This document shows, one piece after another, positions 30,101 through 45,071 of a stretch of 64,000 nucleotides of DNA (position 1 is the first letter of the stretch; every line of letters begins with the position of its first letter). Made by a program: the position numbers and the translations under genes. The notes below the pieces were generated by a model that was given only the letters and a program-made list of their open reading frames with translations, searched no databases and was not told the origin of the DNA. This DNA comes from a virus (taxonomy: Duplodnaviria > Heunggongvirae > Uroviricota > Caudoviricetes). The DNA lies in IMG/VR virus record IMGVR_UViG_3300033069_001366, positions 47,108 through 111,107 of that record. One strand, 5' to 3'.

Positions 30101-31735
30101 GTTGACTGTATAGTTTGAGTAGAGTATTTCTTCATTGGTTTGTTTGTCAACATAAGCTCTCATGTTTGTTATAAGTCCTCTAGATACAACTGTTCCATTT
30201 CCTCCTTTTCTATCAGACCTTGTGATTTTGTAACCTATTATATCAGGGTCACTAAATTTTGGTATATTTTTAAACCTTACACCTAGAATATTAATATAAG
30301 TTTTTCCATCAACTATAGAATATCTAGGAACTTTCTCCTCATCTGGAAATTTGTGGTATCTAATTGGTTTATTAGCATTTTCTCCATAAACTTCCTCATT
30401 ATCAGGATAGAGGTCAGTACTCTCAAAATACCCCATCTCTCCTCTACCTATAACTCTAATACCACAAGAAAATTCATTATTTTCAGACCTCATTTTTCCA
30501 GCAGTATTTTCTATCATCCATCTTTGGATTTTCTCTGGAATATCACAATCTTTTACGTTTTTATCTAATTCATAAACATCTGCAGAGGAGACAGCGTCTC
30601 TATCTTTTGCATTTGCTTTTCTTCCTGCTATGTGATATTTATCTGTTAACTCACCTGTTTTATAAACACCTTGTATATAAAAGTCGTAGTTCTCATCTCT
30701 ATAGTATCCAATATTATCACCATCATTTTCATAATAATCAATAGGTGCTTGAGTAACTACATATTCTGCTTCTATTTCAAAAGCCTTAAGTTGATAATTT
30801 TCTTCATCCCTTCTTACCAAGTCTCCTAATATAAGAGTATTGGAGTTAGAAGAAATAATACCCCCTTTAACCCATGTATTTTTCTTAATAACAAGATCTG
30901 ATAAATTAATTGTCTCAAATGTTGTATTATTTATATCTGTTACTGTTATAGATTTTACTTTTGTAGAATAGTATCCTACTATCTTTGCTACTTTTGTAGC
31001 TCCTTTAGTAACTGGGTCAATATAGTTCGCTACTATACATAATGCAAATTCATCAAATTCTGTATCAATATCTGATATAGATACATCTAATGAACATGTA
31101 TTATTGTCAGAATAAAGAAGTTTTCTATTAGAAATAGAATACCAATCAGAATATATTTTTCCATCAATTGTATATGCTATAGCAGCGGAATATGCGCCAT
31201 TTGGTAAATTTCCAATAAAACCTTGTTTGGTTGATATACAAGGATGTTGTATATTCTTAAAAAGAAGAATTTCATCGCAATCTTTGATTTTTGGTAATGT
31301 TAATAAATCTATTCTTCTAAAAGGATTATATTTATCAGTAAAATATACAATAGTACTTTTATTAAAATCCTTTCTAGCTTTACCTGTAATTTGGTAATCG
31401 GTATTAAAATTTAAACAACTTTTATTAAGAAGTTTTGTATATGTATCTGTAGAAGGATCTCCTATTCCTATTTCTGAATTAATGTTATCTGTAGAAAATA
31501 CAAGATGTTTACCATCTGGTAAATCTATTATTCCTATTATTTTGTAAGGTGCTGAATATGATTTTATAGTAGATGGTTCGTTACCAAGTGTTCCAAGACT
31601 ACCTTCTTTACTGGCTCTTATAATATTCCTTGCATGTGAATAAGATTCACCATTTACATAAGAAGAATCCAGGTCTGTAACTAGACCTGGTTTATTTAAT
31701 GCATTAGTATCTACTTTATTTAAATTATTATCCAT
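27131..31735 (-). CDS. Large virion structural protein (1534 aa), function unknown; possibly a tail, stopper or ejection component.
   Basis: Long uninterrupted ORF in the same block as the neighbouring large proteins. It overlaps the downstream gene start by 4 nt. Confidence 0.55.
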   Translation of the reverse strand: MDNNLNKVDTNALNKPGLVTDLDSSYVNGESYSHARNIIRASKEGSLGTLGNEPSTIKSYSAPYKIIGIIDLPDGKHLVFSTDNINSEIGIGDPSTDTYTKLLNKSCLNFNTDYQITGKARKDFNKSTIVYFTDKYNPFRRIDLLTLPKIKDCDEILLFKNIQHPCISTKQGFIGNLPNGAYSAAIAYTIDGKIYSDWYSISNRKLLYSDNNTCSLDVSISDIDTEFDEFALCIVANYIDPVTKGATKVAKIVGYYSTKVKSITVTDINNTTFETINLSDLVIKKNTWVKGGIISSNSNTLILGDLVRRDEENYQLKAFEIEAEYVVTQAPIDYYENDGDNIGYYRDENYDFYIQGVYKTGELTDKYHIAGRKANAKDRDAVSSADVYELDKNVKDCDIPEKIQRWMIENTAGKMRSENNEFSCGIRVIGRGEMGYFESTDLYPDNEEVYGENANKPIRYHKFPDEEKVPRYSIVDGKTYINILGVRFKNIPKFSDPDIIGYKITRSDRKGGNGTVVSRGLITNMRAYVDKQTNEEILYSNYTVNDLSPDVYISAKQTVYKSGRETNFVPLSEYKKDTFTFYSPHTLFEPRYSIGNELKVECEEVAEITGQFEIVKNHPKLKLLNQFSFWAALAIGSLEAFYQAKGLDKQVTESVDQASFGNVPTTGTVGDINFGFNFQTSNLKTQGTNISNQYTLLSLSFKGIADIIQELSKVKDLPKKGRLLKQIKLVLQLIGSVGISVTLLALTAIKYANEVLDIINGFTANTDYVLQYNASAEFRKSTAAKTGNKRRAIIQSKYLPSQVVSIDNETINNFKREKGVYLKLNKEIIDPSTKDNSRNTISGFGICNDINQKVKSQGSAYYVTNKVNNRNQYGRLGSSSPVSMHSCVLNDFKESPVLYGGDCIIARMYFLKKMQFFNQNLANANFPDGIEYDYRLYRNIGYPRYWLDSTKYDFSEIFTLKTVNFSTFNRTTANKHNLDCKKSKDGKTLSRIDDAYMYLSNNCAIDFICEADYNISFREESEHPFYYQKNKTLSKIFASDKLDFDEEFKINRVYSDLYTTEIFAPQQRSDFDPKNPIPVNEPNSVIYSLPAYNLQKIDNWQYFLPLNFFNFSETDFGKLTGIHPIDQDRLMFLFTKASPFVSMGRSLLELSGQTVTIGDGGLFAQDPREIMPTTNNFGASSSRLAFASNQFGRFYISEKQGKILSFGENLDDISMKGISFWCKNYMPIFLYKYFPSYTKDENTISGVGYQIVFDNFYETLYISKRDFVPVSNEIICENNEFFFRGVKVSLRDSKYFKDVSWTLSYSPMDKAFVSWHDWHPDLVVQGENHFYSVKDKTLWKHNESYESFCNFYDVEYPFEIEPISATGQNVEIIRSLEYILEVYKYKNFGRDRFHVHHENFSNLIVHNSEQISPLLNLSYGNPDPEQNLKYPKKSTNLSYDIVFFKEENKYRVNQFWDITKDRGEFTNNEYHLFPTDESGYKNVINPVAINIDKPEEQRKKFRHYFTKFRLIKSISGSHKFIFKIINIKKLISLR

Positions 31736-32258
31736 TTACAATATTTGACATCTCATTAAATAATCTTAATGATTTTATTATACCTATATCTGTAAGTGTT
31801 ACTTTCTCAACATTTATTCCCCATTTCTTTACTTCAACTCTTACTTTTTTTGTAATAGTGTTATCTGTTTCATTGTCTGTAACATCTTCCCATGCTCTTG
31901 ATGTAACCTGTTCTTTTATTATTGCTTGGGTAGTATCCGATATTGCGTCAACAGGGTCATATACTTCCAATATAACATCTTTTATAGAAGAGATATTATA
32001 TTTTACAACTGCCTTTGCAACTATTTGTTTACCATCTTTTGTTGTTAAAGATTGTGTAGGGATACTTAATGTTGTAGTAACAACAGTTCTCGTTTCTACT
32101 TTATCTAAAAATGGAATCTTCCAACAAATTCCTGGCTCAACAATCTTTAAAAACTTTCCACCTCTAAAATGTACACCTCTATCGTATTCTTTCACAATAA
32201 CAAGTGGAAGAACATCTTCTATAAAATTTAGTAAAAAGTCTACAAGTTTATCAAACAT
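31728..32258 (-). CDS. Hypothetical protein (176 aa).
   Basis: ORF tightly packed with its neighbours, overlapping by 8 nt. Confidence 0.45.
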   Translation of the reverse strand: MFDKLVDFLLNFIEDVLPLVIVKEYDRGVHFRGGKFLKIVEPGICWKIPFLDKVETRTVVTTTLSIPTQSLTTKDGKQIVAKAVVKYNISSIKDVILEVYDPVDAISDTTQAIIKEQVTSRAWEDVTDNETDNTITKKVRVEVKKWGINVEKVTLTDIGIIKSLRLFNEMSNIVNG

Positions 32259-34349: not shown

Positions 34350-34378
34350 TATTAAAAATCCCTCACTTCAGAGGGATC
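34350..34378 (-). terminator. Rho-independent terminator-like hairpin after the exonuclease gene.
   Basis: atccctc-acttca-gagggat hairpin. On the minus strand it is followed by TTTTTAAT. Confidence 0.45.
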
Positions 34379-35208
34379 TTATATTTAAACTTTTTAATAG
34401 GTGAGTAACTTTGTAATTCATTATAAACTAGTTCTAAAAGATTTACATCCTGTTTACAATAATCTATCATTTTTTTCATAGATACTTTACAATTCTTTAG
34501 TACAATATTTTTCCATAAATCTGGTTCAGTTTTAATTTTTTCACCAAGACCTAGGAATTGTCCCATATAATCAAGTTTATTTGAATTAAATTTAAAACCT
34601 GCTCTTGCCATTTTTAAAGTATCTATAGAGTTAAACTTTGGAGAGAGTTCAATTCTATGATATAAACATCTAGTTCTCAACCATTTAATATCAAAAGAAT
34701 CTCCATTTTGAGTAACTGTTTCATCTGCAGAATCTATGATTTTAGCAAATTTTACTAACATTTCATAATCATCTCCATCTTTCCATTGTAAAGATTCTAC
34801 TTTATCAGAATCTGACCATTTCCAACAAATACATATGACCGCCCTTTCTTGTATAATATTTTCATGTGAAAGTTTTATATCTGAACCAATTCTCCAAGAA
34901 GTTACAATATTTGGACTAACCTCTATGTCAAAGAATAGTTTTCTTTTAGGTCTTTCTCTTTCTTTATGTATTAAATTGTAGGTTTCTAATAAGGCAAGAT
35001 CTGATGTAGAATGAATAATTTTATCAGCTTCTCTAAGCTCAGATTGAACACTTTTTACAAGTTCTAGTTCTTTTTGTGCTTCTTTTATAGTTTTAGCAGT
35101 AGTTTTTGGAAGACTTTTCCAAATTGCCTCTAATGTAACATGTGGAGATTTTTTAAGATACCCCTTACGAACCAAAATAAATTTTTCTATTTCCTTTTTA
35201 CTTATCAT
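34363..35208 (-). CDS. DEDDy-type 3'-5' exonuclease (DnaQ/RNase D-like).
   Basis: Exo I LFFDIEVS, Exo II TQNGDSFDIKWL and Exo III YCKQDVNLL motifs are present in the canonical order. Confidence 0.65.
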   Translation of the reverse strand: MISKKEIEKFILVRKGYLKKSPHVTLEAIWKSLPKTTAKTIKEAQKELELVKSVQSELREADKIIHSTSDLALLETYNLIHKERERPKRKLFFDIEVSPNIVTSWRIGSDIKLSHENIIQERAVICICWKWSDSDKVESLQWKDGDDYEMLVKFAKIIDSADETVTQNGDSFDIKWLRTRCLYHRIELSPKFNSIDTLKMARAGFKFNSNKLDYMGQFLGLGEKIKTEPDLWKNIVLKNCKVSMKKMIDYCKQDVNLLELVYNELQSYSPIKKFKYKIPLK

Positions 35209-36002: not shown

Positions 36003-36011
36003 TTGATTATG

Positions 36012-36096
36012 AGGAGAGTACAAGATTCGAACTCTTGCGACTTTTACATCTTCTGTTTAGCAAACAGAACAGTTTACCAATTCCTGCAACTCTCCA
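36012..36096 (-). tRNA. tRNA-Ser(GCU), class II.
   Basis: Acceptor GGAGAGT/ACTCTCC. Anticodon arm TCTGT-TTGCTAA-ACAGA. Long variable arm. T-loop GTTCGAA. Confidence 0.65.
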
Positions 36097-36100
36097 TTTG

Positions 36101-36187
36101 AGGCAAGGGTGGGATTCGAACCCACGGGACTTTTACATCACACAGGCTTTCAAAGCGAGGCTCTTATGACCACTTGAGCACCTTACC
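36101..36187 (-). tRNA. Class-II tRNA, probably Ser(UGA).
   Basis: Acceptor GGTAAGG/CCTTGCC. T-arm GTGGG-TTCGAAT-CCCAC. Anticodon loop TTTGAAA, but the anticodon stem has two mismatches. Confidence 0.5.
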
Positions 36188-36361: not shown

Positions 36362-36390
36362 GAAAAACCCCACCAAAATTGGCAGGGTTT
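36362..36390 (-). terminator. Terminator-like hairpin with a U-tract on the minus strand.
   Basis: In minus sense: CCCTGCC-AATTTTGG-TGGGG followed by TTTTTCT. Confidence 0.35.
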
Positions 36391-36489
36391 TATTGTAAAC
36401 AATATAATTATTTTTAAACAATATAATCCCTGCTCTTACTTTGTAAGAGATACGATAAGGAACTATATAGTTTGTTATTTTTCATGATG

Positions 36490-36527: not shown

Positions 36528-38327
36528 TTAAACATCTATTAAAAATCCCTGATTATTATAACTTATAGTCTGAGAGTATTTTATATTTCCATAACTATCT
36601 ACTACTTTAATTCTAAAAGTATTAATGGTTAAACTTAATTTGATATCCCTACAGTTAGATGCTGTAGTACTATAACCACCAGGAATAGTGTAAATAGTTG
36701 TAAATACATTATTTGTCATTCTTTCAATATATTTTACTACAGGTACATTTGTATTTATATTCCAACAAATATTTGAAACTCTTCTTCTTGGTAATGTTCC
36801 TGATAAAGAAATAGTTCCTTGAATAGGTTCATTTATAGTTGTAGTCGTAGTTGTACTAGAACTTGTAGTTGTAGTTGTTGAACTAGTGGTAGTTGTACTA
36901 CTTGTTGATGTTGTTGATGTACTTGAAGTAGTAGTTGTTGTAGTAGGAACTAAAGTTGTAGTTGTAGTTGTACTTGTACTTGAAGTAGAAGTTGTACTTG
37001 TACTACTTGTACTTGAAGTAGAACTTGTAGTAGTTGTTGTACCAGCAACATATTCTAAAATACCTATTTCAGGAGGATTACTAACAGCAACACCTGCAAA
37101 ATCTACAGAGTACCCCACATTTGTTCCTGCATTTATTAATACACTGCCAACTAAAGGAGAGAAGTTCCAATCTTTTGCATTTCCTGAAGTTGAGGTCCAA
37201 AAGTTAGCACTTGTTACAATCTCACTAGGGTTTGCTGTAATATTTAATAATGAACCTGTTCCTGATGTATTTAATTTGTATACATTATTTTCATGAATAA
37301 GAGTAGTATTATTCCACTGTGCTCTATAGACATCTACAGTACCATATAATTGAAATATATTATTCTTTACAGTTAAAGTAGCTGCTGTAGTAGGAGTGCT
37401 CTTATATCCTATCATTGCATTACTTGATACTCTAAATGGTTGAGTTTCGACAATAACATTATTAAGTATACTTGTATTAATTACATTTGTAGCAAAAGTG
37501 CCTGAATTACTCACATACATAAAAGACCCATTATTTGTACATTTATTGTATGCTAATACAGTTCCGGTTACAGTACGTCCACCTGAACCACCAATTTCAA
37601 TAACACCATTGCAATCATTAAAACTATTGTATGCTATAAGGTTATTACTACAATCTACATCAGCGTAAATATCTACTGCTCCACCATCATATTCATAATC
37701 ATATGAATCTGCCCAACACCCTTCAAATATATTATTTGTAATAATATTATTAGAAGAAGATATAATTACACCATTAGCACCATAGTCATCATCATTTCCG
37801 GGAGGCGGACCATCTTTGGTGTTTTTAATCATCCTCATATTCTGTACTGTAGAATATGTAAAAGTTGTATTATCACCAGTAGTATACAACGCACAACCAG
37901 TTCTATCAAAATTACATCTTGTAATAGTAATATTAGTAGATGAATCTGGAACAATAGCTCTTTGAATTTTTGCCTGTATTGTTCTATCTACTGCAGATAT
38001 AGACTCATCTACTATAGTCCAGTCTTGCAGTGTAATATATGATCTATTATACATAGATATAAGAACATTAATAGATGCACCTGTACCTAATAATTTAGGT
38101 TGTGCCCCTGTTCCATATGCACCAAAAATAATTCTTGCTGATGAATTACCAGATCTTGTTATATTTAGAGTTCCTGAATAACTCTGTCCTCTTTTTAATA
38201 AGACTTGGTCTCCAGGTTGAAGTAAACTCATATTTGAATTTACATTTGATAGAGACTTCCAAGGTGTATTTATACCACCATTAGATGTTGAACCAGTGTA
38301 ACTGGAATCTACGTAATATATTGCCAT
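36528..38327 (-). CDS. Tailspike or receptor-binding protein (599 aa) with a right-handed beta-helix (pectate-lyase-like), a Ser/Thr linker and a C-terminal domain.
   Basis: Repeated NNxIxNN and CxNNG turns (NNIITNNIFEGC, SNNLIAYNSFNDCNG, YNKCTNNGSF). A 70-aa S/T-only linker is followed by a roughly 100-aa C-terminal domain. Confidence 0.65.
   Translation of the reverse strand: MAIYYVDSSYTGSTSNGGINTPWKSLSNVNSNMSLLQPGDQVLLKRGQSYSGTLNITRSGNSSARIIFGAYGTGAQPKLLGTGASINVLISMYNRSYITLQDWTIVDESISAVDRTIQAKIQRAIVPDSSTNITITRCNFDRTGCALYTTGDNTTFTYSTVQNMRMIKNTKDGPPPGNDDDYGANGVIISSSNNIITNNIFEGCWADSYDYEYDGGAVDIYADVDCSNNLIAYNSFNDCNGVIEIGGSGGRTVTGTVLAYNKCTNNGSFMYVSNSGTFATNVINTSILNNVIVETQPFRVSSNAMIGYKSTPTTAATLTVKNNIFQLYGTVDVYRAQWNNTTLIHENNVYKLNTSGTGSLLNITANPSEIVTSANFWTSTSGNAKDWNFSPLVGSVLINAGTNVGYSVDFAGVAVSNPPEIGILEYVAGTTTTTSSTSSTSSTSTTSTSSTSTTTTTTLVPTTTTTTSSTSTTSTSSTTTTSSTTTTTSSSTTTTTTINEPIQGTISLSGTLPRRRVSNICWNINTNVPVVKYIERMTNNVFTTIYTIPGGYSTTASNCRDIKLSLTINTFRIKVVDSYGNIKYSQTISYNNQGFLIDV
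36838..37040 (-). repeat. Low-complexity tandem codon repeats encoding the Ser/Thr linker of the tailspike.
   Basis: Plus-strand gtagttgta/acttgtagt-type units are repeated many times. Confidence 0.7.
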
Positions 38328-38892
38328 TTTTATACTTTTATTATAATATACTAAATATTTCTGATATTACCAAACACACCTCCGTTTATCCCTGCAAGTA
38401 GGGTTTCTATCTTCAAGCATTTAGATAGACTCATCTAACCTAAAACTCCCGTGTCCCTGTGCCTCATCTTTTCACCATGTAGGCTGTTGATTATGAGGAC
38501 TTTATATTTTCACGGAGGAATGTATTTTAGCCTACTTGGTTTTTTCTTGCAGGTACAAGTTGTCACGGATAGACATTGCTTGATATTTATACATCCTATC
38601 GTATGAATTAGTTACTTTCATACTAGTTTTAATAGATAACTTTTATTGTGCTAAAGGATAAAAGTTGGAAAAAACCTTTTGGCAAAAATAAGGGATATTA
38701 GTCAAAATAAAAAATCCTTCTATTTCTAGAAGGACTTTCTATTCCGTGACAATGATGCCTATAAAAACCAAGGCAAAAATACAACTTTTCTTTTTTCTTC
38801 CAAAATTTATTTTGTGGAGATGAAGATAATCGAAATCTTCTCAAATAGTTTGCAAAACTACTTCGCCAGCCTTGGAACATGCACCCCCTTAG

Positions 38893-38965
38893 TTGACTTG
38901 GTGAGTAACGATCTCACTACCTTTACATTATCAGTGTAACGCTCTACCATTTGAGCTACAAGTCA
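38893..38965 (-). tRNA. tRNA-Ile(GAU).
   Basis: Acceptor TGACTTG/CAAGTCA. D-arm GCTC-AAATGGTA-GAGC. Anticodon arm TTACA-CTGATAA-TGTAA. T-arm GTGAG-ATCGTTA-CTCAC. Confidence 0.65.
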
Positions 38966-39501
38966 TTATTAATTATTTGAAAATGTATCTCTGCATGACA
39001 ATTTTTACACACTAAAATACATTTATCTAATTCAGACTTTAAGTTTTGAAAACTTTTAGTTCCACCACTTATAGTATAATCTTTTTTATTAGGATCAATA
39101 TGATGAAATTCTAAAGCAGCAAGACATTTATTATATCCACATTTACAACATTTCCCTCCTTTATATTCTACACATTGTTCTTTTACTTTTAACCTATAGC
39201 CTTTTTTTCTTTTGTCAGCTTTTTGTTTAATTTGAAGTTTTGTAAGTTTTCTTGCTTTTAATTTTTTACCTAATAATTGTCTTGATACTTTAAATTTATC
39301 AGCAACACCTTTAAAAGATAATCCTTGATCATAAGCATCCTGATATATTTTTAATAATTCAGGTGTATATTTATCAACTTTGTTAATAAATTTTGAACAA
39401 TGATAACTTACTGTTGATTTAGAGCATCTTAACTGTTTAGATATTTCAGCAGAACTAAATCCTTTATGAAAAAGTTCCAAAATTTTTGTCTTTTTAACCA
39501 T
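38956..39501 (-). CDS. HTH-HNH homing endonuclease (181 aa).
   Basis: N-terminal HTH-like segment (SSAEISKQLRCSKSTVSYH). C-terminal EFHHIDPNKKD...LVCKNCHAEIH HNH motif with Cys pairs. Confidence 0.65.
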   Translation of the reverse strand: MVKKTKILELFHKGFSSAEISKQLRCSKSTVSYHCSKFINKVDKYTPELLKIYQDAYDQGLSFKGVADKFKVSRQLLGKKLKARKLTKLQIKQKADKRKKGYRLKVKEQCVEYKGGKCCKCGYNKCLAALEFHHIDPNKKDYTISGGTKSFQNLKSELDKCILVCKNCHAEIHFQIINNDL

Positions 39502-39561
39502 TATTGTATACTTTATATATACAATATAAGATAAAAGTTCGAATTTATCAAATTTATTTTG

Positions 39562-39638
39562 TACTGATGATTAGATTCGAACTAATGTGTAACCAACTAC
39601 CTTTTCAACTGGATATAAGCCAGAGAGGATACATCAGC
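39562..39638 (-). tRNA. tRNA-like element, non-canonical and a possible pseudo-tRNA; identity unresolved.
   Basis: Acceptor GCTGATG/CATCAGT and a good T-arm ATTAG-TTCGAAT-CTAAT. The body has only one clean stem-loop (CTGG-CTTATAT-CCAG) and no standard D-arm. Confidence 0.3.
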
Positions 39639-39641
39639 ATG

Positions 39642-39716
39642 TCGCCTATCACGGATTCGAACCGAGGATCTTTCCTTAGACAGAGGAACAGGGACGACCA
39701 ACTCCCCTAATAGGCG
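39642..39716 (-). tRNA. tRNA-Asp(GUC).
   Basis: Anticodon arm TTCCT-CTGTCTA-AGGAA. D-arm GGGG/CCCT. T-loop TTCGAAT with one U-U pair in the T-stem. Confidence 0.6.
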
Positions 39717-39720
39717 TTAG

Positions 39721-39794
39721 TACCATGTATGGGATTCGAACCCATGAATAACACCGTGAAAGAGTGTTGACCTAGACCGCTAGTCAAACATGGC
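39721..39794 (-). tRNA. tRNA-Glu(UUC).
   Basis: Acceptor GCCATGT/ACATGGT. Anticodon arm ACACT-CTTTCAC-GGTGT. T-arm ATGGG-TTCGAAT-CCCAT. Confidence 0.65.
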
Positions 39795-39797
39795 ATG

Positions 39798-39871
39798 TGC
39801 AGTAGACAAGACTCGAACTTGCAAACCTCCGACTTGGAAGGACGGCATTCTACCAATTGAACTACTACTGC
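39798..39871 (-). tRNA. tRNA-Gly(UCC).
   Basis: Acceptor GCAGTAG/CTACTGC. Anticodon loop CTTCCAA, with one U-U in the stem. T-arm GCAAG-TTCGAGT-CTTGT. Confidence 0.55.
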
Positions 39872-39994
39872 AGGTTTAGGTTTTTGTACGCCCGATAGAA
39901 CCTATTAACTATGTGTACTTTACGATTACACTCTTCATTTGAGCTTGAATCAGAGGCTTAAGAGGGACTACGACACTGTGTACATCAGTAACAC

Positions 39995-40459
39995 TTATTT
40001 ATATACAGAAGGGTGTCTTATGACGTGATCTGCAGCCTTACATGCTATCATTTCTCCAGTTTTAAAAGTTGAGTTTGCATAACCTTTAAACGCAGAAACT
40101 AATTTAGAACTTATAGTTTTCTTTGCATCTGCAAAATCAAATTCCAAAGCTTTAACAGCAATAGGGATATCTTGAGTCAAAGTATCATGTATTTCAAGAG
40201 TTCTTAATCCTTCTCCATATAATCTTGTAAATTGACTAAAATCTTTTATTCTTGATACAACTTCTTTTAAGTAAATAAAATGAGCACCTCTTCTTCCATA
40301 TCTATAAGCTATACAAGTTACATAAACGGTATCTTGTCCCCAGTCTTGACTATCTGTTCCGATAGATATTTCTAGATGATTGAATTTTTCAATCTGATCT
40401 AGCGTATGTTCGATGATATTTACTATTTTACCATCTTGTGTCCGAAAATATTTTTCCAT
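39995..40459 (-). CDS. Hypothetical protein (154 aa) embedded in the tRNA array.
   Basis: ORF with no motif I can assign; a segment LEISIGTDSQDWG is noted. Confidence 0.45.
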   Translation of the reverse strand: MEKYFRTQDGKIVNIIEHTLDQIEKFNHLEISIGTDSQDWGQDTVYVTCIAYRYGRRGAHFIYLKEVVSRIKDFSQFTRLYGEGLRTLEIHDTLTQDIPIAVKALEFDFADAKKTISSKLVSAFKGYANSTFKTGEMIACKAADHVIRHPSVYK

Positions 40460-40483
40460 ATTGCAAAGATAGTAATTTTTCTG

Positions 40484-40555
40484 TTGCGAGGGGGAGATTC
40501 GAACTCCCGACTAAAAGGGTATGAGCCTTTTCTGCTACCGCTGCATTACCTCACA
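40484..40555 (-). tRNA. tRNA with CAU anticodon (Met or Ile2).
   Basis: Anticodon arm AAAGG-CTCATAC-CCTTT. T-arm GGGAG-TTCGAAT-CTCCC. Acceptor TGTGAGG/CCTCGCA. Confidence 0.6.
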
Positions 40556-40560
40556 TTATG

Positions 40561-40634
40561 AGGGAAGTAAGGGTGACGATCCCTTCACCTAATGATTAAC
40601 AGTCATTTGCTCTACCAACATGAGCTAACTTCCC
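40561..40634 (-). tRNA. tRNA-Asn(GUU).
   Basis: Acceptor GGGAAGT/ACTTCCC. Anticodon arm AATGA-CTGTTAA-TCATT. Atypical T-loop ATCGTCA. Confidence 0.6.
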
Positions 40635-40676
40635 ACATCTCCTTTTTTAACTCCACGGGGAAAGGTAACCCACCTG

Positions 40677-40750
40677 TATCCTTGGTAAGAATCGAACTTA
40701 CAACTTTTTGCTTAGAAGGCAAATACTCTATCCGTTGAGTTACAAGGACT
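40677..40750 (-). tRNA. tRNA-Arg(UCU).
   Basis: Anticodon arm TTTGC-CTTCTAA-GCAAA. D-arm ACTC/GAGT. T-arm GTAAG-TTCGATT-CTTAC. Confidence 0.65.
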
Positions 40751-40754
40751 TGTG

Positions 40755-40828
40755 TAGAGGATAGGAATTCCGAGATCCTGACTTCTTGTTTGTAATACAA
40801 GCACTCTGCCAACTGAGTTAATCCTCTA
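40755..40828 (-). tRNA. tRNA-Val(UAC).
   Basis: Acceptor AGAGGAT/ATCCTCT. Anticodon arm CTTGT-ATTACAA-ACAAG. T-arm imperfect. Confidence 0.55.
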
Positions 40829-40832
40829 TATG

Positions 40833-40906
40833 TCTCCCCTGAGGGACTCGAACCCACGACTCGTAAATTAAAAGTTTACTACTCTAGCCAACTGAGTTAA
40901 GAGGAG
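40833..40906 (-). tRNA. tRNA-Lys(UUU).
   Basis: Anticodon arm GTAAA-CTTTTAA-TTTAC. D-arm ACTC-AGTTGGCTA-GAGT. T-arm GTGGG-TTCGAGT-CCCTC with one U-U. Confidence 0.65.
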
Positions 40907-40938
40907 AAATAAAAAAGCCCTTCTTTTTGGGAAGGGCT
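40907..40938 (-). terminator. Hairpin with a U-tract (on the minus strand) abutting the 5' end of tRNA-Lys; a terminator or processing signal.
   Basis: agcccttc-tttttgg-gaagggct. On the minus strand it is followed by TTTTTTATTT. Confidence 0.4.
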
Positions 40939-41110
40939 TGTGTATTTTATTTTCTTAACTCTCACTTACAGAAAGACAACACAAACCCTATTGAGTTTCT
41001 ATCCTCAATATTACCTTTCACCATCGCTATGATATTTAAAGATTGCATTTGTGAATGTCTATAACTTTTAATTAGTGCAAATATACAATGTATTTTTTAA
41101 AAATCCAAAT

Positions 41111-41323
41111 TTATTTTTTTGTTCTAAAAAAATATTTTCCGTTTTCTGCTTTTTCTATTTTCTTATGAACTTTTCTTAGTATTCTAGGGACCTTTTTGCC
41201 TATATATACTCTTCTAGTCCCAAGAGTTATTTGTTCTAATGACTCTTGAAACATTATATAACCACCAACTCCAGTATAAAGTGTGATATTTCTCATACTA
41301 CAAAGATATATATTTTTGACCAC
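41111..41323 (-). CDS. Small hypothetical protein (70 aa) with a Lys-rich C-terminus.
   Basis: ORF between tRNA clusters; weak support. Confidence 0.3.
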   Translation of the reverse strand: MVKNIYLCSMRNITLYTGVGGYIMFQESLEQITLGTRRVYIGKKVPRILRKVHKKIEKAENGKYFFRTKK

Positions 41324-41389
41324 TTTATCTGATTCGAACAGATAATTTTTGATCCGTAGTCAAAGGTTATTTCCAGTTTAACTAAAAGT
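41317..41389 (-). tRNA. tRNA-Arg(ACG).
   Basis: Acceptor CCACTTT/AAAGTGG. Anticodon arm TTTGA-CTACGGA-TCAAA. T-arm ATCTG-TTCGAAT-CAGAT. Confidence 0.65.
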
Positions 41390-41396
41390 GGTTTAC

Positions 41397-41469
41397 AGGG
41401 TGATTAAAGGGACTCGAACCCTCACATAATACAGCCACAATGTACCGCTCTACCATTAAGCTATAACCA
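41397..41469 (-). tRNA. tRNA-His(GUG) with an encoded G-1 and C73.
   Basis: Anticodon arm GTACA-TTGTGGC-TGTAT. Extra 5' G pairs with discriminator C. D-arm GCTT-AATGGTA-GAGC. Confidence 0.7.
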
Positions 41470-41471
41470 CC

Positions 41472-41544
41472 AGATCCAATACTAGGGTTCGAACCTAGAA
41501 TCTACTGAATCAAAGTCAGTCGGGTTACCAATTACCCCATATTG
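41472..41544 (-). tRNA. tRNA-Gln(UUG).
   Basis: U1-A72 acceptor pair TCCAATA/TATTGGA. Anticodon arm ACTGA-CTTTGAT-TCAGT. T-arm CTAGG-TTCGAAC-CCTAG. Confidence 0.65.
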
Positions 41545-41567
41545 GAATTTTTCTTCATCCAGTATCC

Positions 41568-41638
41568 TGCACCTCGTACCCTAATCGAAAAGGTTCCAAG
41601 AGGTTTGGAAGCTCTTGTGCTACCATTACACCAACGAG
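41568..41638 (-). tRNA. tRNA-Trp(CCA).
   Basis: Acceptor ACCTCGT/ACGAGGT. Anticodon loop TTCCAAA, with a C-C at the 31-39 pair. T-arm ACCTT-TTCGATT-AGGGT. Confidence 0.55.
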
Positions 41639-41643
41639 GTATC

Positions 41644-41717
41644 TGTGGTAACTCTCAGGTTCGAACTGAGTTAGTCTGTTCTTCAAACAGATGCATTGAC
41701 CAACAATTGCTTAGTTA
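41644..41717 (-). tRNA. tRNA-Phe(GAA).
   Basis: Acceptor GGTAACT/AGTTACC with A73. Anticodon arm TCTGT-TTGAAGA-ACAGA. T-arm CTCAG-TTCGAAC-CTGAG. Confidence 0.7.
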
Positions 41718-41723
41718 CCTTTT

Positions 41724-41797
41724 AGATCCTCCTGAGTTACTCGAAAACTCTCTATTTCTGCTTACAAGGCAGACGCAGCACCATATCTGCATAGGAG
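41724..41797 (-). tRNA. tRNA-Thr(UGU).
   Basis: D-arm GCAG-ATATGGTG-CTGC. Anticodon arm TCTGC-CTTGTAA-GCAGA. T-arm GAGTT-TTCGAGT-AACTC. G1-A72 mismatch. Confidence 0.6.
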
Positions 41798-41803
41798 GCA
41801 TTT

Positions 41804-41879
41804 AGAGTCCATAGTTGGATTTGAACCAACGGTTTTACAATTTTGCAGATTGTTGCTTTTGACCTCTCAGCCATATGGA
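41804..41879 (-). tRNA. tRNA-Cys(GCA).
   Basis: Acceptor GTCCATA/TATGGAC with U73. Anticodon arm ACAAT-CTGCAAA-ATTGT. T-arm GTTGG-TTCAAAT-CCAAC. Confidence 0.65.
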
Positions 41880-41883
41880 CCTA

Positions 41884-42022
41884 TGTGGCAATGAATGGAT
41901 TCGAACCATCTATTTTATAACTTAGTCGCTTAAATTATTCAATCTTTTGTGTCAGGTAGACAGAGGACGATTCTGCATGATGTCCACATCCCAAATGTGG
42001 CGGCTTACCAATTAGCCCACTA
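41884..42022 (-). tRNA. Interrupted tRNA-Pro(UGG)-like gene. The 5' half (acceptor, D-arm, anticodon arm) and the 3' half (T-arm, acceptor) are separated by an insertion of about 70 nt; it may be a pseudogene or an intron-containing tRNA.
   Basis: 3' half: GATGG-TTCGAAT-CCATT plus CATTGCC. 5' half: GGTAGTG (which pairs with CATTGCC through two G-U wobbles), D-arm GGCT-AATTGGTA-AGCC, and a perfect anticodon arm CCACA-TTTGGGA-TGTGG. Confidence 0.3.
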
Positions 42023-42498
42023 CCTGTTTTATGCTTTATTGTATGACAATTACAACAAAGTAGTTGTAAGTTATCAAGATTATTATTTTTTCTATTTCTA
42101 TCTTTATGATGAACTTCTAAAGCTAAAGGGTTATCAAAATTACATTCCTCACATTTTAATTCCTTCATTGATTTTATCTTTATCCATCTATAACTACCTA
42201 TACCAGTTTTATATTGAGGATGATTTTCCCATTTTTTAAAAAGAGTATTGTTTTTTATAGTCGAACACTTTTTACTACAATATAAATTTCCTGTTTTAGA
42301 CCTTTTAATTCTACTAGGAGTAACTATCAAATCTTTACCACAATTTGCACATTTATAATTATATTCTTTTGCTTTTCCTATATGCTTACATTCATTTGAA
42401 CAATAAATTTTCCAATCTTTTTTGATACTAAAATTTATATATTTCTCTTCCTTTTCAAATTTAGATTTACAAACAGGACATATTAAACTTACTTTCAT
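41935..42498 (-). CDS. Zn-finger HNH homing endonuclease (187 aa) whose 3' end overlaps the 5' half of the interrupted tRNA-Pro-like gene.
   Basis: Motif EVHHKDRNRKNNNLDNLQLLCCNCH, which is the HNH signature. Multiple CxxC pairs. Confidence 0.65.
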   Translation of the reverse strand: MKVSLICPVCKSKFEKEEKYINFSIKKDWKIYCSNECKHIGKAKEYNYKCANCGKDLIVTPSRIKRSKTGNLYCSKKCSTIKNNTLFKKWENHPQYKTGIGSYRWIKIKSMKELKCEECNFDNPLALEVHHKDRNRKNNNLDNLQLLCCNCHTIKHKTGSGLIGKPPHLGCGHHAESSSVYLTQKIE

Positions 42499-42587
42499 AC
42501 TACTAATATAGTAAAAAGTTTTCGAACTTCCAAATTTATTTTTATCCCAAAGCTAGTGGGAAAAACCTGACTTCCCTACATCGCCAT

Positions 42588-44426: not shown

Positions 44427-44438
44427 TTTTTTAATTTA

Positions 44439-45071
44439 TTATTGATCATAACAAGAGCAAGCATTTACAAAATTGGTATATCCTCCTCCTCCTAAATACT
44501 GAGTTAACATTTGATCTGCTGTTAATATTGGAATAATAATTGGTACATTAGGAGCACTTCCGTCTTGATCACCATAAGCTTTAAAAATTAAATTTTGTGC
44601 AATAGAAGGAAAAGTTTTAAAACATATCATTATAACCATTGCAGCATCTCCTGAATTTGGAATTTCATCCGCATAACCTGACCAATCACTAAATGCTCCT
44701 AGTATTCCCATTTCATTTAATGCATTTTGTAGTTGAGTAATAGATGAAGTAGGAATACAACCTGAACAATTATAAAAACTAATAGGAGTACTAAATATAA
44801 TAGTATTTCCATTTAAAGTTGCCTCAGTTATATAAACATCATTATATGCAGCATCTCCACCATCAGATATAGACTCTTGTATTTGTATAGAGTAACATTG
44901 AATCTCTTCAAGATTAAACTCTTCATCACAAGAAGAAACAATTGCTGTTTCATTAGTTGATCCAATAAGCTCAGCTCCAGGAGGTAAAACAAAAGTTTCT
45001 CCTTGTTGTAAAGTAACTGATTTATATATACATTTTGTTCCTGTTGCCATAATTATACGTTTGAAATACAA
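44439..45071 (-). CDS. Hypothetical tail-associated protein (210 aa).
   Basis: ORF within the fibre module. Confidence 0.45.
   Translation of the reverse strand: MYFKRIIMATGTKCIYKSVTLQQGETFVLPPGAELIGSTNETAIVSSCDEEFNLEEIQCYSIQIQESISDGGDAAYNDVYITEATLNGNTIIFSTPISFYNCSGCIPTSSITQLQNALNEMGILGAFSDWSGYADEIPNSGDAAMVIMICFKTFPSIAQNLIFKAYGDQDGSAPNVPIIIPILTADQMLTQYLGGGGYTNFVNACSCYDQ

Follow-up and report, generated by a model that had tools for sequence, protein, structure and literature searches.

We find that a 599-residue protein encoded on the minus strand of a deep-branching crAss-like phage genome is composed of a predicted beta-helix enzyme module, a Ser/Thr-rich tether and a domain of the fn3 type, in that order. 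The DNA that we analysed is a stretch of 64,000 nucleotides, referred to here as the window. We give an even chance to the reading that this protein is a depolymerase of host glycans that the phage deploys, built like a bacterial carbohydrate-active enzyme (CAZyme), with its constant C-terminal end as the probable point of attachment to the virion. The gene and its parts lie as follows.

36528..38327, minus strand: complete open reading frame of 599 amino acids, with its stop codon at 36528-36530 (open reading frame list; selection relative to L024)
37047..38327, minus strand: residues 1-427, right-handed parallel beta-helix, putative glycan-cleaving module (AlphaFold2, Foldseek, homologues)
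36837..37040, minus strand: residues 430-497, Ser/Thr linker, flexible tether at which the variable part meets the constant one (composition, pLDDT, codon make-up)
36531..36836, minus strand: residues 498-599, divergent fn3-like domain, putative beta-sandwich, constant C-terminal module (AlphaFold2, Foldseek, hhalign)

The list of open reading frames made for the window contains this 599-amino-acid frame at exactly 36528-38327. Relative to the orthologue in a close relative, contig L024 (gene 91% identical, with about 90% identity at the nucleotide level), the helix codons contain 86 synonymous and 36 non-synonymous differences, the linker codons 18 and 3, and the codons of the C-terminal domain 20 and 14; the codon comparison found no indels between the two genes. 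Because synonymous differences far exceed non-synonymous ones, the open reading frame is a real gene under purifying selection, and an identical 599-amino-acid protein is also found on three public contigs. The protein as a whole matched no Pfam family, and a PHROGs scan returned a low-complexity match to the linker (phrog_25750, residues 432-500) together with one sub-threshold match. A tblastn search of 50,697 GenBank phage genomes with the protein gave no match and thus no characterised phage relative. The protein has no signal peptide; its N-terminus is not hydrophobic, and just 13 in-frame codons separate the ATG from the nearest stop on its upstream side.

The predicted structure places residues 1-427 in the right-handed parallel beta-helix (pectate-lyase-like) superfamily. 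AlphaFold2, supplied with an alignment of 85 sequences, modelled residues 1-430 as a right-handed beta-helix of regular short strands with a pLDDT of 96-99. When this model was compared to the PDB with Foldseek, the best matches were to GH136 enzymes (E 1e-13) and to PL9 and PL6 lyases (1e-8 to 1e-6). The top matches were all beta-helix enzymes, and almost all of the 50 matches listed (E up to 2e-4) are annotated as beta-helix enzymes or tailspikes; the second-best structural match in BFVD is a "Structural protein" of Cellulophaga phage phi17:2 (E 3e-9). These findings bear out the first-pass annotation of this DNA, which had proposed a pectate-lyase-type fold from Asn-rich turn motifs, and the motifs that it quoted are present in the protein. 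Moreover, N261, N289, N290, N322, N323 and N348 are invariant in the 85 sequences at a spacing of about 30 residues, a periodicity which suggests that they form an Asn ladder stacked at the turns of the helix. More than 440 homologues cover residues 1-427 at about 99%, many of them with Pfam matches to Beta_helix, SprB or Por_Secre_tail. (Beta_helix, PF13229, is matched by 12 of the 85 aligned homologues.)

The first-pass annotation had also placed an N-terminal anchor in front of the helix. A separate anchor domain is ruled out: the first beta-strand of the model comprises residues 3-6, residues 1-427 are collinear, at about 99% coverage, with cellular secreted beta-helix proteins, and the first 80 residues correspond to a GH136-type cap. 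The same evidence bears on the tailspike reading of that annotation; in a canonical tailspike, an N-terminal particle-binding domain would be followed by a trimeric beta-helix and a C-terminal receptor- or carbohydrate-binding domain. Like the tailspikes of the P22 gp9 class, HK620 and Det7, the protein is a phage-encoded beta-helix that is presumed to act on host surface polysaccharide, its gene lies in the tail region, and its helix module is exchanged between related phages. However, its structural likeness to the solved Det7 and HK620 tailspikes is weak (E about 1e-4), and GH136, PL9 and PL6 enzymes match far better (E 1e-13 to 1e-6). Furthermore, residues 1-84 are taken up by the GH136-type cap rather than a particle-binding domain, the constant end is the C-terminal one, and the helix is followed not by a tailspike-type C-terminal domain but by a disordered Ser/Thr tether and an fn3 domain. 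We therefore regard a canonical tailspike as highly improbable.

The best Foldseek matches in the PDB, at E 1e-13 to 1e-9, are the GH136 lacto-N-biosidases (LnbX of Bifidobacterium longum, ErLnb136, BsaX and TnX; 5gqc, 6kqs, 7v6i and 7v6m), which are likewise right-handed beta-helices. Profile comparison relates GH136 to the phage helix family at E 1e-22 to 1e-18, but the similarity is confined to the N-terminal cap and the last coils. The common cap, formed by the first 80-84 or so residues, reads YYV..G.D.N.G....PWKTL....L.PGD.VL...G, and the common last coils read ..SPAIN.G....DF.GN......PD.GA.E; by contrast, HMMER left the central catalytic coils unaligned, and the NCBIfam LnbX model scored 33 bits against a cut-off of 2500. 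Activity in GH136 depends on a helical partner (GH136-I/LnbY), which may be a domain or a subunit, and on an Asp pair (D568/D575 in ErLnb136) whose members, the acid/base and the nucleophile, are spaced seven residues apart (PMC7335108, PMC8106489). Neither in the protein nor beside its gene was a partner of this kind found: the AlphaFold2 model of the 599-residue protein contains no helical domain, and the gene is flanked by homing endonucleases, tRNAs and structural genes of the crAss type. In the coils that correspond to the GH136 Asp pair, matched by a rough offset only, the phage helix family has no conserved acid. Unlike GH136, it conserves a different acidic cluster.

37596..37787, minus strand: codons of the acidic cluster, candidate active or metal-binding site (conservation in 85 homologues)
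37785-37787, minus strand: D181, in the motif DDDYGAN, invariant in 85 homologues
37698-37700, minus strand: D210, 91-100% conserved in 85 homologues
37686-37688, minus strand: D214, 91-100% conserved in 85 homologues
37596-37598, minus strand: E244, invariant in 85 homologues

The spacing within the cluster is about 30 residues, or one helical coil, and the residues fall on successive coils, so that all four may share one face of the helix; judging from this conservation, the cluster is a candidate for a conserved active or metal site. Choosing between a hydrolase and a lyase from the conserved residues proved undecidable, because conserved basic residues (R165, K262, K321 and H345) accompany the acidic ones, and the characterised enzymes are all too distant from the helix for a substrate to be transferred. 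Given that neither mechanism can be assigned, and that the catalytic region of GH136 is unaligned, we entertained the idea that the helix only binds glycans, on the host surface or in the environment, and thereby raises the rate at which virions encounter cells. Beta-helices and fn3/Ig-like domains are indeed often binding modules. Two findings argue against a non-catalytic adhesin or decoration, which we consider improbable: 85 homologues from phages and bacteria share invariant acidic residues on successive coils, and the nearest structural relatives are all enzymes.

Over residues 1-427 the protein is homologous to, and 40-56% identical with, secreted parallel beta-helix repeat proteins of the Chitinophagaceae and other Bacteroidota (T9SS cargo) and of the Saccharibacteria, with which it shares the same invariant residues. 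These cellular homologues (from Chitinophagaceae, Ferruginibacter and Saccharibacteria MAGs) carry signal peptides and terminate in SprB or Big_7 repeats, some also bearing a Por_Secre_tail sorting domain; some of these homologues are 52-56% identical to the phage helix. The phage protein differs from them in having no export signal and in ending in the Ser/Thr tether and a particular fn3 subtype. Note that most of the 16 "viral" loci recovered in a scan of IMG/VR carry signal-peptide-bearing, T9SS-type cellular versions, and these loci thus say nothing about use by phages.

The linker, whose DNA (36837-37040) agrees with the 36838-37040 given in the first-pass annotation, is as extreme as had been described. 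Its 68 residues (430-497) comprise 43 Thr, 22 Ser, one Leu, one Val and one Pro, so that 65 of the 68 are Ser or Thr, and AlphaFold2 leaves it disordered (pLDDT about 30), consistent with a flexible tether. The suggestion that it is encoded by tandem codon repeats was overstated. TRF found degenerate periods only, of 6 nt (64% match) and 24 nt (62%), perfect tandem repeats reach no more than 18 bp and exact direct repeats no more than 20 bp; perfect repeats are short because synonymous codons are mixed (ACA 22, ACT 19, AGT 13, TCA 6). The predicted length variation is seen in the wider family, where linkers range from about 18 to 70 amino acids; those of the near-identical proteins P0002 and P0285 differ by a 5-amino-acid STSTT indel, and those of P0025 and P0287 by one TTTTTTLPP unit. 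However, linker length is identical in the L024 orthologue, and since it is exactly kept at 90% nucleotide identity the linker is not hypermutable on that timescale.

It had further been suggested that the linker is O-glycosylated. The general O-glycosylation system of the Bacteroidota acts on proteins exported by Sec and recognises the sequon D-(S/T)-(A/I/L/V/M/T). The sequon is absent from the whole 599-residue protein, and the linker contains neither Asp nor Glu. Because the protein has no signal peptide with which to reach this periplasmic system, and has no sequon, O-glycosylation of the linker appears unlikely.

The separate C-terminal domain of roughly 100 residues that had been proposed does exist. 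In the full-length AlphaFold2 run these residues were modelled poorly (pLDDT 30-75) because the alignment is thin in that part, a problem that was solved by rerunning the domain in isolation: modelled alone, the C-terminal 102 residues fold as an all-beta domain with a pLDDT of 89. The top Foldseek matches of this model are fn3 domains, at marginal E-values of 4e-3 to 5e-2 and TM scores of 0.45-0.6. Pfam fn3 matched none of the single C-terminal domain sequences. When a profile of the domain was used instead, seven of the eight matched proteins scanned proved to consist of fn3 domains in tandem, and the remaining one of Big_13 Ig-like domains. With hhalign, the domain aligned with an fn3-repeat alignment at 92% probability (E 5.7e-7) over 81 columns, among them the Trp of strand B and the motif Y.[FY]RV...N..GNS.YS. 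On this profile evidence, residues 498-599 are best classified as a divergent fn3 domain. A carbohydrate-binding module, as the first-pass annotation had ventured, was set aside, there being no recognisable CBM family. Among the best structural matches (marginal, E 4e-3 to 2e-2) are the fn3 domains of Bacillus circulans chitinase A1, the pectate lyases PelI and Pel3, and CtXyl5A, in which, as here, a catalytic domain is joined to fn3. Low-complexity linkers occur in such fn3-bearing bacterial enzymes; unlike the phage protein, these enzymes are exported.

Strong full-length matches to this fn3 subtype come only from phage-type proteins of the lineage (P0002, P0003, P0025, P0131 and P0285-P0287), and the subtype was not seen in the cellular helix homologues examined. 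(A further strong scorer with the fn3 profile, the 2509-residue protein P0130 with 16 matched stretches, lies outside this check of lineage specificity.) A word-indexed homology search with the same profile yielded one fragment, P0131, and it was this fragment that led to L024. The tether and fn3 end are kept in the lineage, with the fn3 domain 40-54% identical across proteins whose helices belong to different clades, whereas the helices themselves come from three deep clades, as judged by an identity matrix and a neighbour-joining tree built without bootstrap. One relative, P0287, carries two helices in tandem. Moreover, in related contigs the flanking genes are 55-71% identical as compared to 36-43% for the helices. 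These findings show the beta-helix to be an exchangeable cassette on a constant tether and fn3 end. Because the tether and fn3 domain stay constant while helices are swapped, and one relative has two, we infer that the fn3 end is what attaches the protein to the virion, and the polarity of attachment would then be the reverse of that of a classical tailspike. Among the papers that were searched, none offers a relevant precedent for a phage depolymerase with a Thr-rich linker and fn3 domain.

It is possible, though we hold this only tentatively, that the arrangement goes further: a reverse-polarity appendage in which fn3 docks on the tail or capsid and the low-complexity Ser/Thr tether doubles as a recombination junction. 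Helices captured from host-type secreted glycanases would then be exchanged, or lined up one after another as in P0287, so that the phage is retargeted, and they would represent an uncharacterised glycanase family, sister to GH136, that works without a GH136-I partner. In known tailspikes and in crAss fibres it is the N-terminus that docks, through residues 1-26 of gp22 in the case of PhiCrAss001 (PMC10172136), whereas the N-terminus of the phage protein is the helix cap itself, an observation that speaks against a place on the virion.

The gene neighbourhood indicates the kind of phage that carries the protein. The portal matches phrog_6547 (E 4e-67) and is 23-25% identical to known Crassvirales, genes of the window match Pfam CrAss_Ring_1 and CrAss_Ring_2, a major capsid protein is present, and a 1534-amino-acid open reading frame matches virion structural PHROGs. 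Together these form a Crassvirales-like set in conserved order (portal, crAss-type capsid, paralogous ring proteins, giant virion proteins), on which the assignment to the crAss-like phages rests. In the window, L024, L001 and L104 the gene occupies a slot between genes of the tail block and the CrAss_Ring_2/Ring_1 and muzzle-sized genes, and in L023, which is a different crAss-like phage, the equivalent position is taken by a homologue, P0046; the position immediately 5' of the tail ring genes is thus fixed in five related crAss-like contigs. PhiCrAss001, which belongs to the same virus order, has a similar neighbourhood, with R2, R1 and a muzzle-sized gene following, and there the genes directly before R2 are fibre-docking hub genes (PMC10172136). 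In the window, a Pfam scan of nine tail-block neighbours and a 163-amino-acid open reading frame returned nothing informative, and no hub protein was recognised among them. The tail-spike regions of crAss phages are hyperdiverse and include glycosyl-hydrolase-like domains (PMC10136315). The tail-region location and the exchange of modules fit a role in host range, as the first-pass annotation had proposed; that the protein is the prime determinant is unproven, given that it is 91% identical between the window and its closest relative while the neighbouring 210-amino-acid open reading frame (44439-45071) is only 35% identical. Around the gene lie the following elements.

36364..36391, minus strand: terminator-like hairpin with a 12-bp stem, 5 G-C pairs and a T-run (consensus scan)
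38345..38373, minus strand: weak sigma-70-like promoter match (9/12) just 5' of the ATG (consensus scan; low weight)
38374..42544, minus strand: variable insertion, given for context, with most of the tRNA array, HNH genes and an RNaseH-like open reading frame (absent from L024)
38956-39501: first HNH gene, inside the variable insertion
39995-40459: RNaseH-like open reading frame, inside the variable insertion
41935-42498: second HNH gene, inside the variable insertion

The hairpin, a putative terminator of the gene, lies about 140 nt 3' of the stop codon and just ahead of a tRNA-Leu gene; the scan that found it returned 4 sites against 1.1 expected in shuffled sequence. The promoter-like match falls within the 47 nt of upstream sequence that are still common to L024. 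(Sigma-70-like matches are not enriched, at 26 against 20.6 expected, and the consensus leaves out Bacteroidota and phage-polymerase promoters.) Beyond this point homology to L024 skips from 42544 to 38374 of the window: in L024 the tRNA/HNH block is missing, and the gene directly follows a conserved gene of the structural block that encodes 329 amino acids. A moron reading based on location in the tRNA array is weakened by this comparison, since L024 lacks the upstream block yet keeps the gene.

Several further observations speak against a virion protein. A disordered tether of 68 residues followed by an fn3 domain typifies bacterial enzymes that are soluble or sit on the cell surface, rather than rigid trimeric spikes, the gene has its own terminator-like hairpin and tRNA/homing-endonuclease surroundings, and P0014 lies outside any obvious structural block. 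P0014, at 55% identity the closest homologue without a signal peptide, is encoded in the tRNA/HNH region of a jumbo phage of about 300 kb, within an array of 32 tRNAs and away from recognisable structural genes. In favour of a virion protein, the same helix in another phage, P0042, adjoins an M15 endolysin and a collagen-like gene, which is a tail-fibre neighbourhood, and the BFVD match from phage phi17:2 is named a structural protein.

The same enzyme might therefore act outside the virion, as a soluble, moron-like accessory glycanase captured from a host-type secreted enzyme. It would be made late, be released at lysis and strip capsule or biofilm polysaccharide from around neighbouring cells, and its fn3 domain, as in bacterial CAZymes, would be a spacer or bind substrate weakly. 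The missing N-terminal anchor, the CAZyme-like plan of catalytic domain, Ser/Thr linker and fn3, the hairpin and tRNA/homing-endonuclease setting of the gene, the position of P0014 and the 52-56% identity of the helix to signal-peptide-bearing cellular proteins are all consistent with this. On the other hand, the slot is fixed in the tail gene block of five crAss-like contigs, the gene directly follows a structural-block gene in L024, and the lineage-specific fn3 subtype is kept while helices change. This last point is more easily explained by a phage-specific partner, because a substrate-binding module should change along with the enzyme. We consider a soluble glycanase possible but less likely. 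In the reading that we prefer, a depolymerase carried on the virion, the helix would most likely cleave a surface polysaccharide of the host, probably a member of the Bacteroidota, and this would let the short-tailed crAss-like virion reach the outer membrane, the fn3 end holding the protein near the tail hub/ring assembly. The fold, the domain borders, the homology, the missing export signal, the synteny, the exchange of modules and the purifying selection are shown by the analysis; catalysis, the substrate, attachment to the virion and the end that attaches are proposed.

Were the enzyme simply a soluble depolymerase, the finding would be an ordinary one. To our knowledge, how crAss-like phages recognise their receptors is poorly understood, and none of their depolymerases has been characterised; the fibres of PhiCrAss001 reportedly could not be modelled. 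The locus offers a clean and testable case: the enzyme module has a confidently predicted fold, the domain borders are defined, and natural variants exist in which helices of clade I, of clade II, of clade III, or of both II and III are set on the same constant end. With these variants one could map host range and probe the C-terminal anchoring of a phage appendage. The locus also links secreted beta-helix proteins of the Chitinophagaceae and Saccharibacteria, which form an uncharacterised family, to GH136, the evolutionary origin of which has been described as enigmatic (PMC8106489).

The beta-helix gene occupies exactly the position that the first-pass annotation had assigned to it.

36528-38327, minus strand: beta-helix gene, an ORF of 599 aa
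36837-37040, minus strand: Ser/Thr linker DNA, residues 430-497 (previously placed at 36838-37040)
36886-37296, strand opposite the beta-helix gene: ORF of 136 aa, a by-product of the linker codon run

The closest relative contig, L024 (~90% nucleotide identity), carries an intact 599-aa orthologue with zero indels, and synonymous codon differences between the two exceed non-synonymous ones in the helix (86 versus 36), the linker (18 versus 3) and the C-terminal domain (20 versus 14). Thus, the ORF is a real gene.

With an alignment of 85 family sequences as input, AlphaFold2 modelled residues 1-430 at a pLDDT of 96-99, the linker at ~30 and the C-terminus poorly. When the helix was compared with the PDB by Foldseek, GH136 lacto-N-biosidases ranked first (7v6i, 5gqc, 7v6m and 6kqs; E 1e-13 to 1e-9), followed by pectate lyase Pel9A, alginate/PL6 lyases and rhamnogalacturonan lyase (E 1e-8 to 1e-5), and the phage tailspikes Det7 and HK620 reached only ~E 1e-4. 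The right-handed beta-helix proposed earlier is thus borne out. Among predicted viral structures the best matches were a 'Right handed beta helix region' protein of an uncultured phage (E 8e-15) and a 'Structural protein' of Cellulophaga phage phi17:2 (E 3e-9). In sequence, a single-protein search matched a GH136 enzyme over the first 80 residues only, and the helix family profile matched GH136 chains (E 1e-22) only at the N-terminal cap and last coils, with the catalytic centre outside the match. GH136 enzymes require a helical partner, GH136-I/LnbY, and act through an Asp pair, D568/D575 in ErLnb136 (PMC7335108, PMC8106489); neither has an evident counterpart in the phage protein. The GH136 link is a distant one, and is one of the unusual points of this locus.

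Within the family, D181 and E244 are invariant and D210 and D214 are conserved in at least 91% of members, at a spacing of about one coil; R165, K262, K321 and H345 are also conserved. These residues suggest an active or metal-binding groove, although they do not tell hydrolase from lyase chemistry. Because fold, family and conserved residues all point to an enzyme, we regard that assignment as well supported and probable; that the protein is instead a non-catalytic adhesin seems improbable.

A profile search with the helix domain recovered more than 440 proteins aligned across ~99% of residues 1-427, and Pfam assigns many of them a T9SS sorting domain (Por_Secre_tail), SprB repeats, Big_7, fn3 or Beta_helix. 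When one genome per species was scanned, 541 relatives emerged, the closest being from MAGs of Chitinophagaceae, Ferruginibacter, Sediminibacterium and Chitinophaga and from Saccharibacteria MAGs. A signal peptide and C-terminal Ig-like or SprB repeats were present in all 12 of the top cellular loci inspected, and likewise in most IMG/VR 'viral' matches. This end-to-end alignment with signal-peptide-bearing cellular proteins argues that residues 1-427 are a single module of cellular origin, and that the segment first taken for an N-terminal anchor is the helix cap. Moreover, only 13 in-frame codons separate the ATG from an upstream stop and the N-terminus is not hydrophobic, so that neither a signal peptide nor a concealed N-terminal domain would fit. 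The anchor must accordingly be given up, and a canonical tailspike is very hard to credit. (Note that the homologues on contigs L005-L017, catalogued as viral in IMG/VR, are of the cellular type, with signal peptides and T9SS-like C-terminal tails, and reach 1279 aa with two helix-like regions; these contigs could be bacterial DNA, either flanking a prophage or misclassified.)

Some homologues have no signal peptide and open with MA.YYVSSSYTG. These were phage-borne in every contig inspected.

P0003: syntenic crAss-like contig L001
P0287: syntenic crAss-like contig L104
P0046: a different crAss-like phage, L023
P0014: ~300 kb jumbo phage, L020/L021, gene at 10001-11920

P0014 is the closest of them, 55% identical to the window protein. 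Its gene sits in a dense array of 32 tRNAs with HNH endonuclease and RNA-ligase genes nearby, so that two unrelated types of phage carry the helix family amid many tRNAs. P0042, with a 57-aa N-terminal extension, comes from a 125 kb phage in which its gene adjoins an M15 endolysin and a collagen-like gene. Several phage-type members share the general plan and differ in their C-terminal ends.

P0014, P0015, P0031, P0037, P0038, P0048: SprB-like repeats and a conserved terminal beta-domain after the helix
P0044: Pro-Thr linker after the helix
P0021, P0042, P0047: nothing after the helix

The window protein ends in a domain (residues 498-599) that had been called separate and possibly a carbohydrate-binding module. 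Modelled in isolation with AlphaFold2, it adopts an all-beta fold (pLDDT 89). The structures nearest to it, at marginal E-values, are fn3 domains, among them that of chitinase A1 and those of the pectate lyases Pel3 and PelI. When a profile of the domain was searched exhaustively, 193 proteins matched; eight large multi-repeat matches went through Pfam, which resolved seven as tandem fn3 arrays and the eighth as an Ig-like array of Big_13 type. Alignment to the fn3 repeats by hhalign gave 92% probability (E 6e-7), and Pfam itself gave no direct match to the domain. Taken together, these results point to a divergent fn3 domain, a separate unit as proposed but of no recognisable carbohydrate-binding module family. 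With the exception of P0130 (2509 aa, 16 matched stretches), a strong scorer too, high full-length scores for the subtype came only from phage-type proteins of the window lineage; it is found in no other ORF of the window.

Flanking core genes of the window are 55-71% identical to those of L001 or L104, whereas the helices are only 36-43% identical. A neighbour-joining tree (no bootstrap support) and an identity matrix group the helix modules into three deep clades, with a large gap between the identities across clades (36-43%) and within them (52-66%).

Clade with the window protein: signal-peptide proteins P0019, P0023 and P0026; jumbo-phage type P0014 and P0015
Second clade: P0003 and the first helix of P0287, 52% identity
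Third clade: P0002, P0025 and the second helix of P0287, 66% identity

The window helix is 55-56% identical to P0014, P0015 and P0001. The fn3 ends of P0003, P0287, P0002 and P0025 are of the window subtype and 40-54% identical to the window's own, and in P0287 two helices follow one another, each with a Thr linker behind it, ahead of the fn3 end. A constant C-terminal fn3 and tether, with helices swapped or duplicated, is an unusual arrangement.

The linker comprises 68 residues, 43 of them Thr and 22 Ser, with single Leu, Val and Pro residues. It had been ascribed to tandem codon repeats prone to length variation. TRF detects periodicity, but only degenerate (period 6, 64% match; period 24, 62%); because synonymous codons are mixed (ACA 22, ACT 19, AGT 13, TCA 6), no perfect tandem repeat exceeds 18 bp and no exact direct repeat exceeds 20 bp. 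Length does vary across the family, from ~18 aa in P0025 to the 68 aa seen here, with one additional TTTTTTLPP unit in P0287; P0002 and P0285, otherwise near-identical, differ by a 5-aa STSTT indel. It is, however, equal in the window and L024. Between these two lie three Ser/Thr interchanges and 18 synonymous changes, so that composition and length are both constrained on this timescale. O-glycosylation of the linker, also proposed earlier, appears unlikely, since the protein has no export signal, the linker no acidic residue, and the 599 aa no D-(S/T)-(A/I/L/V/M/T), the sequon of the Bacteroidota O-glycosylation system. Phage tRNAs Ser(GCT), Ser(TGA) and Thr(TGT) read the chief linker codons AGT, TCA and ACA; this may be coincidence, because the array covers most amino acids.

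36011-36187 and 41725-41799: linker-codon tRNA genes, both tRNA-Ser genes directly downstream of the beta-helix gene

With ~30% GC, the window is a low-GC phage genome whose genes all share one strand. It encodes a portal (E 4e-67), a major head protein, CrAss_Ring_2, CrAss_Ring_1, a 1534-aa virion protein at the muzzle-protein position and further giant ORFs; in identity to sequenced phages the portal reaches only 23-25%, which indicates a deep-branching crAss-like lineage (the related contig L001 is 160 kb). The beta-helix gene lies in a 20-tRNA array with two HNH genes and one GIY-YIG gene. A stretch of ~4.1 kb (38374-42544) that accounts for the bulk of the tRNAs and for both HNH genes, together with a 154-aa RNaseH-like ORF (39995-40459), is missing from L024, where a conserved 329-aa gene and tRNA-Pro directly precede the beta-helix gene. 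The beta-helix gene thus belongs to the backbone, and the tRNA/endonuclease block around it is a variable insertion. (The slot holds 16 tRNAs in L001 and 5 in L104. One tRNA of L104, at 5755-5827, has anticodon CTA, labelled Pyl by ARAGORN, and would read the amber codon, which hints at TAG recoding in that relative; none of the window tRNAs has this anticodon.)

The order 329-aa gene, beta-helix gene, 281-aa RNase_H_2-like gene, 163-aa gene, Ring_2, Ring_1 and muzzle-sized gene is kept in L001 and L104, and in L023 the P0046 gene lies between a 921-aa tail-block gene, upstream, and Ring_2 and Ring_1, downstream. In PhiCrAss001 the genes directly before R2 are those of the fibre-docking hub, THA and THB, and the fibres dock by the gp22 N-terminus (PMC10172136); the hub genes correspond to the window slot by position only. 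Three other ORFs of the window deserve mention.

34363-35208, minus strand: 281 aa, RNase_H_2/DNA_pol_B_exo2-like (PHROG 'DNA polymerase exonuclease subunit', E 6e-48)
31728-32258, minus strand: 176 aa, Band_7 (stomatin/prohibitin-like) protein between Ring_1 and the 1534-aa ORF
218-13804, minus strand: single ORF of 4528 aa, downstream of giant ORFs of 1954, 1534, 898 and 878 aa

The 281-aa protein (~61% identity among relatives) has its gene within the structural block. In the window, L001 and L104 that gene stands two places upstream of Ring_2, about where the tail-hub genes of PhiCrAss001 lie; this is an odd site for an exonuclease, and the protein may be a structural one with an RNase H-like fold. 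The 4528-aa ORF may, by position, be a crAss-type virion RNA polymerase or cargo protein.

Three points lead us to infer, at even odds, that the protein is virion-borne and anchored by its C-terminus: its gene keeps one slot in the tail block, the C-terminal end stays constant and specific to the lineage while the N-terminal helices are exchangeable, and the helix recurs in the tail-fibre neighbourhoods of further phages. Against virion attachment, and for a soluble accessory depolymerase, stand the lack of any N-terminal segment for docking, a tether whose length and disorder are typical of soluble enzymes, a terminator-like hairpin of the gene's own and the position of P0014 in a tRNA array; the soluble form is possible though doubtful. 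For host-range differences between close relatives, another gene may outrank the beta-helix gene as a candidate: a 210-aa ORF with a TTG start (44439-45071, minus strand) is 35% identical to its L024 counterpart, between flanking genes at 90-94%, and nucleotide homology is lost over ~44430-44920, which resembles a cassette swap.

According to a review, the part of crAss genomes that encodes the tail spikes is hyperdiverse, changes through horizontal transfer and may include glycosyl-hydrolase domains (PMC10136315). A putative beta-helix depolymerase within the crAss-like tail region is expected in kind; among its unusual points is the CAZyme-like architecture, free of an N-terminal anchor.
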